A stretch of 10,907 bases of DNA, taken from Candidatus Helarchaeota archaeon. Lineage in GTDB: Archaea; Asgardarchaeota; Lokiarchaeia; Helarchaeales; RDOG01. Made by a program: the position numbers and the translations under genes. Positions 515-6,268 of this stretch are shown in pieces. Position 1 is the first letter of the stretch; every line of letters starts with the position of its first letter. The stretch covers positions 1 to 10,907 of the forward strand of contig JALGVI010000107.1 of the NCBI GenBank assembly GCA_029838215.1. Reading direction: 5' to 3'. The notes under the pieces are model-generated. The model was not told the origin of the DNA. It ran no database searches and saw only the letters and a program-made list of their open reading frames with translations.

Positions 515-958
515 ATGAAAGGCGTAAAAGCGGTTCTCATCTTGAAAAAAGATGGTGGGGTGCTGTTTAGTTACGAGATTTTTAATCAAGTATACGAACA
601 AGATGATGCTCGTCTTTTTTCGGGTTTCATTTCAGCAGTTCACTCATTCAGCCGCGAAATCGGTGAAAAGGGTATTGAATTTCTTGAACTCGGTCACTCC
701 ATGGTCTTCATATCCTTTTTTTCTAAGCTTGATCTTTTTTTCATCGTGATCAGTGATTTAAAGGCAAGTAAAAAGCAAATGATTGAGTTTCTAAATCTTA
801 TCAAGAAAAGGTTTGTCGAGAGATTTGGGAAAAAAATAGGCATTATAAGTAATGTGAATGAATTGGAAATGGCCGATTTCAAGGAGGATATTGAAAATGT
901 GTTAGAAATAGATTTGGCAAAACGGATCGAAGCAAACCTCGAAGCCTTATATTTCTAA
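515..958 (+). CDS. Stand-alone longin/roadblock-like domain protein
   Basis: 147 aa. The pattern VLILKKDGGVLFS...LFSGFISAVHSFSREI...FFIVISD...LNLIKKRFVERF fits the longin beta-beta-alpha-beta-beta-beta-alpha-alpha layout. Starts 23 bp after the GTPase stop on the same strand. Confidence 0.7.
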   Translation: MKGVKAVLILKKDGGVLFSYEIFNQVYEQDDARLFSGFISAVHSFSREIGEKGIEFLELGHSMVFISFFSKLDLFFIVISDLKASKKQMIEFLNLIKKRFVERFGKKIGIISNVNELEMADFKEDIENVLEIDLAKRIEANLEALYF

Positions 959-1708: not shown

Positions 1709-2090
1709 TGCAAGCTGCTCTGATATCAACAAGTTCTGGAGAAATCGTGTAGTAAGGCAGGTCTTCAAGGAACACCTTTGCCCTACCTTTCCAAGAATGC
1801 ACTTTTTTGAATAACTCCCAGTGCTGTTTTCTATATAGGATGGGTAAATCTTCGCTTGGTTTTTATAAAATTGTGGAAGAGCAAGGATTCGCATTCTTAT
1901 CATAAAATTTAAGAATGAAAATGTCTTGAATTGATTACAATTGAGATCTGCATGATATTATTAAAGGAATTGATAAGATGAGAAGAAGGGACTGCGAAAT
2001 TAGTTCCCGGCCGTAATTGTTTTTTCACTACAGTAGTAGTGGATGTCAGGAGTTCGTGCAGATTTAAGCCAAGAAGGAGCGTTTTTTTTA

Positions 2091-5072
2091 ATGTCAAAGA
2101 TAAGTGAAATGCCGAAACACGTGAAAATCCAAGATATCGAAACCGAAATGTTGAAATTCTGGGACGATAACAAGGTCTTTCAAGAGATATGGAAGCGGGC
2201 TGAGAAGAAAAAATATCCTGATTGGAAATTCATCGATGGTCCTCCATACACGACAGGGAGCATACATCTCGGCACGGCTTGGAATAAGGTACTGAAAGAT
2301 TTTGTCATTCGCTACAAAGCAATGAACGGGATGCACGTGCGCATAAATCCCGGGTATGACATGCACGGATTGCCCATTGAAGTGATAGTGGAGAAGAAGC
2401 TCAATATCAAGAACAAGAAAGAAATTGAAGCCGACATCATGAAATTCACGGGAGAATGCAAGAAATTCGCATTAGATAATTTATGGATAATGAATGAGTC
2501 ATTCAAGCGCTTGGGTTGTTTTTATGATTGGGATAACCCTTACATGACGATTCATAACAAGTATATTGAAGGCATTTGGTGGGCTCTGAAAAAAGCATGG
2601 AAAAACGGCTATCTTTACAAGGGCGTTCGGCCGCTAAACACTTGTCCGAGATGTGAGACTGCTTTGGCAAAGCACGAATTCGAATATTATGAAGTTGAAG
2701 ATTATGCACTATTCGTGAAATTGAAGGTCAAAGGAAAGAAGAATGAATATCTCACGATTTTTACGACGACACCTTGGACGTTACCTGCCAATTTAGCTGT
2801 TATGGTCAATCCGGAATATGAATACATACGTGCAAAAGTCGAAAATGAAGTTTGGATAATGTCAAAAAATCTTGCCACTTCCGTGATCGGTGGACTTCTC
2901 GGAAAAGACTTTAAAGTCATCGAGGAGTTTTACGGCGAGAAGCTTGAAGGAACGAAATATACACCACCTTTGGCAAAACAGGTACCAAAGAACATGGAAT
3001 TTGAAAAGGAGTCTGAGAATACGCATACAGTGATTCTCAGCGAAGAATATGTCACTTTAGATAAAGGTGGAACCGGTCTTGTTCACGCGGCTCCAGGACA
3101 CGGACAAGAAGATTTCGTTGCTTGTGGTCCTCAGTCGAAGTATGCAATCCCTGCATTTTGTCCTGTAAATGAAAAAGGTGTTTTCACCGAAGATGGTGGG
3201 AAATATGCGGGTCTGTATATAAAAGATGCTGACCCTGTCATCATTGAAGACCTGAAGAAAAATGGAATTCTATTGTCTGATGAGAGATTGAAGCACGAGT
3301 ATGCTCACTGTTGGCGTTGCAAGAGTCCTCTCATATATCGAACCATCCCACAATGGTTCTTCAAAATGAGCGCATTAAATGACCTGATGGTTGAAGAAAA
3401 TAAAAAAATATTTTGGCAACCAGAATTTGCAGGTCGATGGTTTGAGAACTGGATCAAGAACTTATGGGATTGGTGTATTAGCCGTCAGCGGTATTGGGGA
3501 ACTCCTTTATCCATTTGGGAGTGTGATAAGTGCGACGACATTGAAGTCATAGGTTCAACAAAAGAACTCGAAGATAAAGGATTAAATGTCCCGGAAGATT
3601 TACATAGACCGCATATTGATGGCGTGACATGGAAATGCAAGTGTGGAGGAACGAAGAAAAGAATCCCTGACGTGCTTGATGTCTGGTTAGATTCTGGAAG
3701 TGGTGAATGGTCTGTCTATCCATCGGTAGGACGAGAAGAAAATTATGACAATTGGCGTATTGGCGATTTTATCTTGGAAGGAAAGGATCAAATTCGGGGC
3801 TGGTTTAATACATTGACGAGTTCAAGCATTGTCGCAACCGAGCACCGCGCGTTTAATGCGTGCTACATGCATGGATTCGTGATGGATGAACAAGGACGAC
3901 CGATGAGCAAGTCTTTAGGAAACGTCACGGCACCAGAAGAAATTATCGAGGAACATGGCTCTGAAAGTTTTCGCATGTACAGCGTTAAATCTACGGCACC
4001 CGGGGAAGATTTGAAAATCGTGCGATCAGAAATTCGTGATCAACATCGAGCACTTGACATTCTTTATAATACGTTCGTATTCGCCAGCACGTTCATGGCT
4101 CTTGACGACTTTGATCCCACGAAGATTAGTTTGAAGAAGTTGGACTTGGAAGTCATAGACAAGTGGATCCTGAGTCGCCTGAATTCGCTTACCAAAAATC
4201 TCACGGGAGCATTTGAAGTTTATAACTTACCCAAAATTCCAAAATTCACGCAGAAATTTTTCATTGATGATTTGAGTCGCTGGTATATCCGAATCATCCG
4301 ACCTCGAATTGGCAAATCTGCCAAAAAAGAAGTAAGACATGCTGCATTACGCGTGCTTTTTGAAGTCCTGTCTCGATTGACGACTCTCCTTGCTCCGCAA
4401 GTGCCTTTTCTTGCTGAGAGGTTCTATCAAGGACTCGTTCGACCTTTCTATCCAAAACTTCCAAAGAGCGTGCACATGCTCGAATGGCCAAAAGTGGAAG
4501 ATTCAAGGATCGATCCCGAACTGGAAGGTGCAATGGAACAAGTCCAAAGAATTGTAGAAGTACTTCTTTCAATTCGCCAAGAACAAGGGATCAAGACGAG
4601 GTATCCCTGTCTGAGAGCCGTTATCAAACCAAAGAAAGACGCTCCAAAAATAGAACATCTAAACGCTGTTATTGAGAATCAAGCAAACGTGAAAAAAGTT
4701 GAAATCTCCAAGAAAAAAATAGCAAAAGACATGCCCTTCAAGGAAACTGCATTCTTTGATATAGCCCTTGACACAACTGTTACTGAAGAACTTAAAGCCG
4801 AACGGTTAAGTCGGGAACTCACGCGGAGCATTCAACAAGCTCGAAAGAAAAACAAGTTTCAGATCAAGGAACAAATCGAAATAGTCGTTACTTGTAGCGA
4901 TGCCAATACTTTGGAAACACTAAAGACATTTGAAACGACGGTAGGTCCCATCATCGGGGCAACTAAGATGGAATTCATGGCGAAAAAACCGAAACGAGTT
5001 GATAAATCATTCTTTCAAGGAAAAGTAAAGTATGATGAAGTGCTCGTTGAATTCTACTTCAAGAGAGCCTAA
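2091..5072 (+). CDS. ileS: Isoleucine--tRNA ligase, archaeal/eukaryote-like type
   Basis: DGPPYTTGSIHLGTAWNK (HIGH equivalent), GYDMHGLPIE, editing-domain TTTPWTLP and GGTGLVHAAPGHG, WCISRQRYWG, EGKDQIRGWF, PMSKSLGN (KMSKS equivalent), Zn knuckles and the C-terminal RELTRSIQQARK extension. ATG 2091 (SD-like GGAG at 2076-2079) is preferred over 2043. Confidence 0.98.
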   Translation: MSKISEMPKHVKIQDIETEMLKFWDDNKVFQEIWKRAEKKKYPDWKFIDGPPYTTGSIHLGTAWNKVLKDFVIRYKAMNGMHVRINPGYDMHGLPIEVIVEKKLNIKNKKEIEADIMKFTGECKKFALDNLWIMNESFKRLGCFYDWDNPYMTIHNKYIEGIWWALKKAWKNGYLYKGVRPLNTCPRCETALAKHEFEYYEVEDYALFVKLKVKGKKNEYLTIFTTTPWTLPANLAVMVNPEYEYIRAKVENEVWIMSKNLATSVIGGLLGKDFKVIEEFYGEKLEGTKYTPPLAKQVPKNMEFEKESENTHTVILSEEYVTLDKGGTGLVHAAPGHGQEDFVACGPQSKYAIPAFCPVNEKGVFTEDGGKYAGLYIKDADPVIIEDLKKNGILLSDERLKHEYAHCWRCKSPLIYRTIPQWFFKMSALNDLMVEENKKIFWQPEFAGRWFENWIKNLWDWCISRQRYWGTPLSIWECDKCDDIEVIGSTKELEDKGLNVPEDLHRPHIDGVTWKCKCGGTKKRIPDVLDVWLDSGSGEWSVYPSVGREENYDNWRIGDFILEGKDQIRGWFNTLTSSSIVATEHRAFNACYMHGFVMDEQGRPMSKSLGNVTAPEEIIEEHGSESFRMYSVKSTAPGEDLKIVRSEIRDQHRALDILYNTFVFASTFMALDDFDPTKISLKKLDLEVIDKWILSRLNSLTKNLTGAFEVYNLPKIPKFTQKFFIDDLSRWYIRIIRPRIGKSAKKEVRHAALRVLFEVLSRLTTLLAPQVPFLAERFYQGLVRPFYPKLPKSVHMLEWPKVEDSRIDPELEGAMEQVQRIVEVLLSIRQEQGIKTRYPCLRAVIKPKKDAPKIEHLNAVIENQANVKKVEISKKKIAKDMPFKETAFFDIALDTTVTEELKAERLSRELTRSIQQARKKNKFQIKEQIEIVVTCSDANTLETLKTFETTVGPIIGATKMEFMAKKPKRVDKSFFQGKVKYDEVLVEFYFKRA

Positions 5073-5074
5073 TA

Positions 5075-5088
5075 CAAAAATTTATAAT
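5075..5088 (+). promoter_or_regulatory. Candidate BRE + TATA box for the tRNA gene
   Basis: CAAAAA followed by TTTATAAT. This would start transcription near 5110, about 25 nt before the mature tRNA 5' end. Confidence 0.5.
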
Positions 5089-5096
5089 CTCGCTCA

Positions 5097-5104
5097 TTTT
5101 TTTT
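5097..5104 (+). terminator. Candidate oligo-T terminator of ileS
   Basis: T8 run 25 bp after the ileS stop. Archaeal intrinsic termination uses U-tracts. Confidence 0.45.
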
Positions 5105-5156
5105 ATGTACGAAAAGAAGATTCGTGATAAACCGAGCTCCCGTAGCTCAGCCGGAT

Positions 5157-5175
5157 TGAGCTGAGTCTCCTGGAA
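5157..5175 (+). other. tRNA intron 1 (19 nt, D-loop, position 20a/21)
   Basis: Central helix CCGG 5151-5154 / CTGG 5170-5173, bulge AT|T, inner stem GAG/CTC, and 3' AA|A facing AG (bulge-helix-loop form). Splicing gives the normal D-loop AGCCGGAUA. Confidence 0.8.
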
Positions 5176-5192
5176 AGAGCGCTGGCCTTATA

Positions 5193-5254
5193 GGAGTGCA
5201 ATGGAGCAAGCACGTCCTGCATCTTGACCATGCTCTTTACATTCACTTGAAGAA
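5193..5254 (+). other. tRNA intron 2 (62 nt, canonical 37/38)
   Basis: Central helix CTTA 5187-5190 / GAAG 5249-5252 (3 pairs plus an A.G mismatch), bulges TA|G and AA|A, inner stem GAGTG 5194-5198 / CACTT 5244-5248. Confidence 0.85.
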
Positions 5255-5276
5255 AGCCAGAGGTCGCGGGTTCGAG

Positions 5277-5307
5277 CGATTTGGAGTAAGCACTCCAAAA
5301 ACGGAAC
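5277..5307 (+). other. tRNA intron 3 (31 nt, T-loop, position 59/60)
   Basis: Central helix TTCG 5271-5274 / CGGA 5302-5305, bulges AG|C and AC|A, and an 8-bp inner hairpin TTTGGAGT 5280-5287 / ACTCCAAA 5292-5299. Confidence 0.82.
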
Positions 5308-5403
5308 ACCCGCCGGGAGCACCTCTTTATCACTTGCTCGAATTCATTCTAATTAATGCGAAAAAATCCGTTCACGTATTTTTTATGATTCAAGAAAAAG
5401 GAT

Positions 5404-6171
5404 TTATTTAAACCAAGGAATTTCTTTTTGAATTAAAGACCGAGCCTCTTTCTCTGATTTTGCTGCAAATTTTTTATACTTGACGTGTGTCTCCAGTATT
5501 TTTTGTAGTGCTTTTCGAACCAATTCCTTGTTTTTCCATGTTTTTAAATCAGAAACGACCGTCTCTAGACATTTTTTTTTATATGAAATTTGACTCAATA
5601 CGTGAAGTAAGATGTCTTGAACCTTCTTATTTTTATCGTGCTGGACTGCTTTCAATAGAGGTAAGATATCCTCAGGATGGCTACGTCCTCGTAGTTCCAT
5701 TCCGTGTATTATTTGATGTCGTATTCTCGGATTAGGGTCTTGATAAAATCTTCGTGCAAATGCTAACATCGCTCGTGGATTTTTTTCTCCCATCTGCTTT
5801 AATGCTCCGATCACCGCATTCTTGACTAACTTATGTTCATCCTCAAGAGCACGTTCGAGCATTTCCACTATGCTCCTTGCATCGGTCTTGCCTATTTCTC
5901 CAAGAGCGTGCACGGCGGTCTGCCGGACTCTAGGATTGCTCATATCAAGCATTATTTTTAGAAATCCGATAATGCGCTTTCTAAATTCAGGATTATCTCT
6001 ATAAGCCCGTCCCAAAATTGTATAAGCATTCTTTCTTATGTAGGTATCCTCATCGCTTGCATAATCCAAAATATTGTCGAGAATTTTTTCTGATAGATCG
6101 TTTTTGATGACAAATTCCATTCCCTTGACAATTTCGTCCCGTTCTTCCTTCGGAAGGTCGTAAAATCCCAT
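5404..6171 (-). CDS. HEAT-repeat protein (DNA alkylation repair/AlkD-like or HEAT_2 type)
   Basis: Repeated HEAT-like units: DEDTYIRKNA, NPRVRQTAVHALGEIG, EHKLVKNAVIGALKQMG, PNPRIRHQI. ATG 6171 (MGFYDL) is preferred over TTG 6180. The specific function cannot be assigned. Confidence 0.8.
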   Translation of the reverse strand: MGFYDLPKEERDEIVKGMEFVIKNDLSEKILDNILDYASDEDTYIRKNAYTILGRAYRDNPEFRKRIIGFLKIMLDMSNPRVRQTAVHALGEIGKTDARSIVEMLERALEDEHKLVKNAVIGALKQMGEKNPRAMLAFARRFYQDPNPRIRHQIIHGMELRGRSHPEDILPLLKAVQHDKNKKVQDILLHVLSQISYKKKCLETVVSDLKTWKNKELVRKALQKILETHVKYKKFAAKSEKEARSLIQKEIPWFK

Positions 6172-6268
6172 GATGAACAATCCTACTGATTTTTGGACTT
6201 GTACATAACTTGACCAAATTCTTTTTTATGGTTTTTATTAAGTAAAATATTATGAGGAGTTTATAGAT

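Follow-up and report, generated by a model that had tools for sequence, protein, structure and literature searches.

A three-intron tRNA-Ile(UAU) gene, the probable AUA decoder of an Asgard archaeon, predicted downstream of isoleucyl-tRNA synthetase

Transfer RNA genes interrupted at several positions have been described in Asgard archaea on a large scale. In three complete Asgard genomes, 92-95% of the tRNA genes carry introns, more than half with several (Valentin-Alvarado et al. 2024, PMC11291895), and a survey of three Asgard families found 2.2 intervening sequences per gene, with up to five (Goswami et al. 2026, 10.64898/2026.10.13.758758). The same preprint reports that D-arm inserts preferentially escape tRNAscan-SE, that gains occurred repeatedly and that most genomes encode two EndA paralogues (10.64898/2026.10.13.758758). 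An (alpha-beta)2 EndA with the L1 loop had already been reported in Asgard genomes, and incomplete Asgard tRNA sets had been taken as a sign of undetected disrupted genes (Kaneta 2018, PMC5829648). An earlier reading of the present DNA, made from the letters alone (the sequence-only reading), had regarded multi-intron tRNAs as best described in Thermoproteales, a view outdated by these published Asgard cases (PMC11291895; 10.64898/2026.10.13.758758).

The gene analyzed here, at positions 5136-5321, shares with the published Asgard genes several BHB-type introns located at the D arm, at 37/38 and in the T arm, a D-arm insert of the kind missed by annotators, intron positions that vary between lineages and a two-paralogue EndA. 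It is a further example of this pattern and not a new kind, and it adds one case that is well supported by synteny and covariation. Comparable features are described in Thermoproteales (Pyrobaculum, Thermofilum; Sugahara et al. 2008, as cited in later work), namely sites in the D loop, the variable loop and at 59/60, relaxed hBH and HBh' motifs, and an (alpha-beta)2 EndA with a Crenarchaea-specific loop. In contrast to these organisms, the present host belongs to a different phylum and has a mesophile-like GC content of 38.6%.

A third point of comparison is found outside the archaea. To our knowledge, the tRNA-Ile(UAU) of eukaryotes always has an intron at 37/38, and this intron is needed for the Pus1-dependent pseudouridines at positions 34 and 36 (see also PMC11912914). 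The archaeal gene resembles it by its UAU anticodon, by a long 37/38 intron present in the three genomes compared and by the lack of a C34-modifying (TiaS/TilS-type) route, but differs from it by two extra non-canonical introns and by BHB-dependent intron removal. We know of no description of the gene at 5136-5321 itself.

The window, meaning the whole stretch of 10,907 nt that was analyzed, is an entire 10.9-kb contig (C102) of a 3.62-Mb assembly made of 170 contigs (38.6% GC, 94% complete). At one end of the window, genes for a Gtr1/RagA-type GTPase and then a longin-domain protein form a eukaryote-signature pair of the kind that typifies Asgard genomes; this makes the Asgard-like host proposed by the sequence-only reading reasonable and bears it out. 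The tRNA gene sits in a 331-nt gap between open reading frames, is overlapped by no open reading frame of at least 80 aa, and starts 63 nt (5073-5135) after the end of the isoleucyl-tRNA synthetase (IleRS) gene, on the same strand. A tRNA-Ile(UAU) directly 3' of IleRS is also found in a genome from another genus of the family (G001, locus L006, minus strand), and this adjacency could reflect co-transcription or co-regulation. A search of genome contigs with IleRS yielded one 71%-identical fragment, from another metagenome-assembled genome, which is cut off before the tRNA.

Table 1. Features of the tRNA-Ile(UAU) gene and its neighbourhood, in positions of the window.
Feature	Position	Strand	Evidence
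Gtr1/RagA-like small GTPase, then longin-domain protein	3-491 and 515-958		weak Pfam match (longin-domain protein)
Isoleucyl-tRNA synthetase gene	2043..5072	+	Pfam tRNA-synt_1, Anticodon_1, DUF5915; protein atlas: Ile-tRNA ligase
Exon 1 (acceptor 5' strand, U8-A9, D-stem 5' strand, D loop to 20a)	5136..5156	+	ARAGORN; compensatory changes in orthologues
Intron 1 (19 nt, D loop 20a/21, relaxed HBh')	5157..5175	+	motif and shuffles; same site in G001
Intron 1 helices	H = 5151-5154/5170-5173; inner helix 5158-5160/5167-5169	+	
Exon 2 (A21, D-stem 3' strand, G26, anticodon-stem 5' strand, loop C32-A37)	5176..5192	+	ARAGORN; changes in orthologues
Anticodon UAU, within exon 2	5189-5191	+	
Intron 2 (62 nt, canonical site 37/38)	5193..5254	+	motif and shuffles; same-site introns in G001 and G054
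Intron 2 helices	H = 5187-5189/5250-5252 plus A.G mismatch; inner helix 5194-5198/5244-5248	+	
Exon 3 (A38, anticodon-stem 3' strand, variable loop AGGUC, T-stem 5' strand, T loop U54-G59)	5255..5276	+	ARAGORN; changes in orthologues
Intron 3 (31 nt, T loop 59/60)	5277..5307	+	motif and shuffles
Intron 3 helices	H = 5271-5274/5302-5305; outer = T stem; 8-bp hairpin 5280-5287/5292-5299	+	
Exon 4 (A60, T-stem 3' strand, acceptor 3' strand, discriminator A73; CCA unencoded)	5308..5321	+	ARAGORN
HEAT-repeat ORF	5404-6180	-	

The three introns account for 112 of the 186 nt of the gene (19+62+31) and the four exons for 74 nt (21+17+22+14); the coordinates and the arithmetic of the sequence-only reading proved exact. 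Its claim of an exact 74-nt cloverleaf after intron removal was confirmed by ARAGORN, which called the spliced product tRNA-Ile(tat) in the standard fold, with a 7-bp acceptor stem, a 4-bp D stem, and anticodon and T stems of 5 bp each. None of the 21 stem pairs is broken, and the product retains U8, A14, G18G19, A21, U33, G53, the T loop UUCGAGA, C61 and A73. The anticodon loop, CUUAUAA, has 7 nt with U33 and a purine at 37, in an elongator-type body. The junction with the best motif in this loop leads to the anticodon UAU, and the alternative junctions would give AGA, UAA or UGA. In its unspliced form, the gene was missed by ARAGORN, with or without anticodon-loop introns allowed (up to 100-200 nt), and had no Rfam match either at the gathering score or at E<=10.

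Each junction was then scored against the BHB geometry, coded as two 3-nt bulges spaced 4 bp apart, each cut behind its second nucleotide. Strict, perfect hBHBh' was found at none of the three junctions, but each carries a BHB-type motif. Around intron 1, the central helix CCGG/CUGG is fully paired (4/4), the bulges are AU↓U and AA↓A, the 5' bulge is a clean 3-nt one and the inner helix has 3 bp. The D stem, which serves as outer helix, is shifted out of register by 2 nt; this turns the 3' "bulge" into a 2x3 internal loop, and the motif is of the relaxed HBh' class only. Intron 2 is of the hBHBh' class with one mismatch in H: three of its four central positions are paired, the fourth being an A.G mismatch, between an outer helix of 5 bp (the anticodon stem) and an inner helix of 5 bp. 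In intron 3, the central helix UUCG/CGGA (4/4) is contiguous with the T stem, which provides an outer helix of 5 bp, and the 8-bp inner hairpin begins beyond a 2x2 internal loop, a near-canonical hBH motif with a delayed h'. When the letters of each intron were shuffled, the central and inner helices were matched in 27, 31 and 0 of 20000 shuffles for introns 1, 2 and 3, respectively. With a cloverleaf and a motif at each junction, the view of the locus as one tRNA gene with three BHB-type introns is borne out.

A fold in which the three motifs are enforced reaches -61.4 kcal/mol, versus -72.2 for the unconstrained minimum free energy (MFE) structure. The motif of intron 1 is missing from the latter, which favors a competing 7-bp hairpin, GCUCAGC/GCUGAGU; the main difference between the two folds is this pairing of the D-stem 5' strand with intron 1. 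One may speculate that the weak D-arm motif is cut less efficiently. Since no nucleotide is shared between the three motifs, which lie in different arms and fit together into a single fold, no splicing order is forced, and the ordered splicing advanced by the sequence-only reading is not implied.

Two EndA paralogues are encoded in the host genome (C168:14184-14756 and C1:87093-87752). The alpha paralogue (190 aa) aligns end to end with the A. pernix chain 3P1Z_B (E = 5e-48), keeps the Y-H-K triad, shows no gap over the Crenarchaea-specific (L1/CSL) loop and has a lysine aligned to Lys44 of A. pernix, a residue whose mutation abolishes the cutting of a D-loop intron in A. pernix (Hirata et al. 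2011, PMC3241643). The beta-like paralogue has a threonine at the position of the catalytic histidine of the M. jannaschii enzyme. The pair thus resembles the heterotetrameric EndA of A. pernix and P. aerophilum (3P1Z, 3AJV, 2ZYZ) in the loop region, the aligned lysine, the Y-H-K residues and the His-less second subunit. It differs from them in that the host beta-like protein is closer to M. jannaschii, matching the alpha4 enzyme better (1e-21) than the crenarchaeal beta chains (4e-5). The architecture, whose classification had been proposed as a check, is that of a catalytic alpha subunit with a Crenarchaea-type specificity loop combined with a beta-like subunit lacking the histidine. As for the relaxed EndA that had been invoked, a two-subunit architecture tied to relaxed specificity is indeed encoded, and the breadth of that specificity would follow from analogy with the A. 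pernix work. The relevance to the origin of eukaryotic TSEN that the sequence-only reading saw is a general remark, which does not rest on this locus. The ligase RtcB is encoded at C13:28973-30277 (E = 1.9e-173).

Orthologues of the gene were compared between the host (G000), G001 and a genome from another family of the class (G054, 4.36-Mb, single contig). In G001 the gene is split in the D loop (21 nt, with site and motif type as in the host), at 37/38 (57 nt) and in the variable loop (30 nt). No intron interrupts its T loop, and the 59/60 intron is likewise missing in G054, where the gene carries the 37/38 intron only (45 nt, central helix 4/4). When the spliced forms of the three genes are compared, 12 of 21 stem pairs have changed on both sides, with no one-sided change and no broken pair. 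This covariation among orthologues establishes the spliced molecule as the product under selection, and the orthologous intron sets establish that the intron complement changes between lineages. Sets of three introns, of three with another third site, and of one fit repeated gain or loss at places where a splicing motif can form.

The class comprises at least 150 species genomes. BLAST of the 186-nt gene against 60 relatives returned one chance match of 22 nt only, a failure explained by the shortness of the exons. Spliced alignment 3' of IleRS revealed no tRNA-Ile in 19 more distant relatives, the 12-mer of the anticodon arm pointed to no further tRNA in 100 genomes of the class, and a pattern combining the anticodon arm with a core of intron 2 had 20 matches in metagenome contigs, none of them in a tRNA.

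The codon presumed to be read by this tRNA, AUA, occurs at 20.2 per 1000 codons in the host (765 long ORFs). TiaS (PF08489, TiaS_FLD) was found in none of 61 genomes of the class (the host and 60 relatives), in all four archaeal controls and in 120 of the 201 genomes of a phylum sample. By family, most others of the phylum are positive and four or five small families negative. The absence of the agmatidine route is judged here from TiaS (0/61). The structural scan described below found no other credible UAU tRNA in the host genome; a second solution with a UAU anticodon (C161, 386 nt, four inserts) was rejected, as ARAGORN did not accept it and its motifs fell below the threshold. The members of the class in which tRNA-Ile(UAU) was found are G000, G001 and G054. 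As TiaS was not found in any of the 61 genomes, tRNA-Ile(UAU) is probably the only AUA decoder of the class, and the lineage as a whole appears to have switched from agmatidine to a UAU anticodon. Among the host tRNAs, the body of the spliced molecule shows 56/74 identity to tRNA-Thr(GGU) and 55/74 to tRNA-Ile(GAU), the second-closest. In the literature, we found no mention of TiaS loss or UAU decoding in Asgard archaea, and we consider this thread of a probable sole AUA decoder more interesting than the three-intron example itself.

The cloverleaf, the motifs, the conservation with covariation and the enzyme genes are all present. On this sequence evidence, the plus strand of 5136-5321 is very probably a functional tRNA-Ile(UAU) gene reading AUA, whose three BHB-type introns would be removed by the (alpha-beta)2 EndA and whose exons would be joined by RtcB. 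In the proposed mechanism, a precursor of ~186 nt would be transcribed, in which exon and intron together would fold a BHB-type motif in each of three arms, at 20a/21 (D), 37/38 (anticodon) and 59/60 (T). The (alpha-beta)2 EndA, through an alpha subunit with a Crenarchaea-type loop, would cleave both bulges of every motif, RtcB would ligate the exons and CCA would be added later. The mature 74-nt tRNA would then be charged by the IleRS encoded just upstream and would decode AUA. We infer the cleavage and ligation at the three junctions, the breadth of EndA specificity and the aminoacylation from the genes and motifs described above.

To test whether the gene is more than a chance structure, both strands of the genome were scanned for cloverleaves. 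The D, anticodon and T loops could each hold one insert of 11-130 nt and the variable region an insert of up to ~130 nt, the reversed, uncomplemented genome serving as control. Solutions were retained when every insert had a motif score >= 7 and ARAGORN accepted the product. The filtered scan revealed three genes with three introns, namely Pro-CGG (C1), Ile-UAU (5136-5321) and Leu-CAA (C115), and three genes with two introns, Gln-UUG, Tyr-GUA and Arg-GCG. A fourth two-intron gene, Gln-CUG, is accepted by ARAGORN and has motif scores of 6 and 10, just under the threshold. After the filter, the reversed genome contained no multi-intron gene. Without the motif filter, reversed DNA yielded a few solutions with three and four inserts, the three-insert ones being similar in length, so that a cloverleaf alone is not decisive.

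Rfam detected 28 tRNAs in the host genome and ARAGORN 33, several with odd intron calls. Seven of the 28 scan-verified genes, including 5136-5321, carry two or three introns and all seven were missed by Rfam. Four of them (Tyr, Ile-UAU, Leu-CAA and Pro-CGG) escaped both tools, and the remaining three were given a wrong identity by ARAGORN. The suggestion that other tRNAs "missing" from such genomes are hidden in the same way thus holds in this genome. The sites are shared as well: an intron at 59/60 occurs in five host tRNA genes (tRNA-Ile(UAU) and four others), and the D-loop site GGAU↓...↓AGAGC is common to tRNA-Ile(UAU) and tRNA-Arg(GCG). In the relatives G054, G032 and G053, which are 92-100% complete, Rfam found 25, 31 and 16 tRNAs, respectively, and these low numbers suggest that undetected interrupted tRNA genes are probably common in the host class. 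Standard finders overlook about a quarter of the scan-verified host tRNA genes, which makes arguments from codon usage or "missing tRNAs" unsafe for such metagenome-assembled genomes unless the search is intron-aware.

These data also bear on readings in which the locus would not be a working gene. Free choice of three deletions could in principle produce a cloverleaf by chance, as illustrated by the few three-insert solutions that loose structural criteria return from reversed DNA too. No such solution reaches the motif threshold, however, and chance fails to account for syntenic orthologues with covariation; we regard this explanation as refuted by the orthologues and give it practically no probability. 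A decaying tRNA pseudogene carrying insertions would be in keeping with the blindness of standard tools to the locus. Such decay is extremely improbable given that the 21 stem pairs are intact, that the universal nucleotides are kept, and that the three genomes differ by 12 compensatory pair changes with none broken. The locus also appears to be the sole candidate AUA decoder of an AUA-rich genome without TiaS.

Two further readings accept the gene but treat its D arm differently. The 19-nt insert could be retained, giving a two-intron tRNA with an enlarged D loop. Of the three motifs, that of the D arm is the weakest and does not appear in the MFE fold, many D-arm inserts were left in "mature" Asgard tRNAs by tRNAscan-SE, and the 2026 preprint deliberately speaks of "intervening sequences" as D-arm inserts might stay unremoved (10.64898/2026.10.13.758758). 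Against retention, the central helix, true 3-nt 5' bulge and inner helix of intron 1 together were reproduced by the 27 shuffles reported above only, the same architecture is seen again in G001 (the intron sequences being compared informally) and the same site is used in tRNA-Arg(GCG), and the D loop of G054 is a normal one of 10 nt. A D loop of 28 nt would, moreover, break the contact of G18/G19 with the T loop. Taken together, retention is very unlikely. The other reading keeps the gene and moves the D-loop intron from 5157-5175 to 5150-5168, the D loop then reading ACCUGGAAA. This is also a deletion of 19 nt, which relies on the same central helix and places the bulges at the opposite side of that helix; it scores slightly higher in the structural scan (H 4, h 1, h' 3, total 8) and its 74-nt product is accepted by ARAGORN. 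However, this split leaves part of the D stem unpaired and deletes G15, the partner of C48. The corresponding alternative in G001 gives a D loop without GG, whereas the junction of the type chosen by the sequence-only reading has H 4/4 and h' 3 there, at the same site. We therefore hold the shifted junction to be distinctly unlikely and retain intron 1 at 5157-5175.

Comparison of the orthologous 37/38 introns of G000 and G001 revealed a common core, CTTGACCAnnCTCTTTACA (window 5223-5241), in which 17 of the 19 nt are exactly conserved. By eye, no relationship is seen between the remaining parts of the two introns, nor between the flanks of the genes. Among 150 genomes of the class, the core searched with up to two mismatches matched at the rate of the reversed control, and only in G000 and G001 did it lie within a tRNA gene. 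A recurring variant of the core was discarded, as it sits inside a protein-coding gene and not in a tRNA. The core of intron 2 has no Rfam match. Many tRNAs in these genomes commonly carry canonical introns, and the presence of one at 37/38 is therefore not special in itself. It is conceivable, although unlikely, that this class without TiaS reads AUA in a eukaryote-like manner by an intron-bearing tRNA-Ile(UAU) whose precursor requires the core-bearing 37/38 intron. If such a need existed, the intron might present U34 and U36 for modification before splicing, following the logic of eukaryotic Pus1, or alternatively act as a stable excised RNA.

Inspection of intron 2 by eye revealed no convincing box C/D motifs. 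Elsewhere in the host genome, the tRNA-Trp (C75:7142-7278) and tRNA-Tyr (C88:19904-20078) genes have 37/38 introns of 63 and 69 nt, respectively, with GATGATG- and CTGA-like boxes. A box C/D guide RNA is known in the tRNA-Trp intron of Euryarchaeota, and by analogy these two introns may be box C/D guide RNAs. The tRNA-Arg CCG gene (C89:33234-33355) has a 47-nt 37/38 intron with a tandem duplication of ~15 nt, which possibly takes in part of the anticodon arm.
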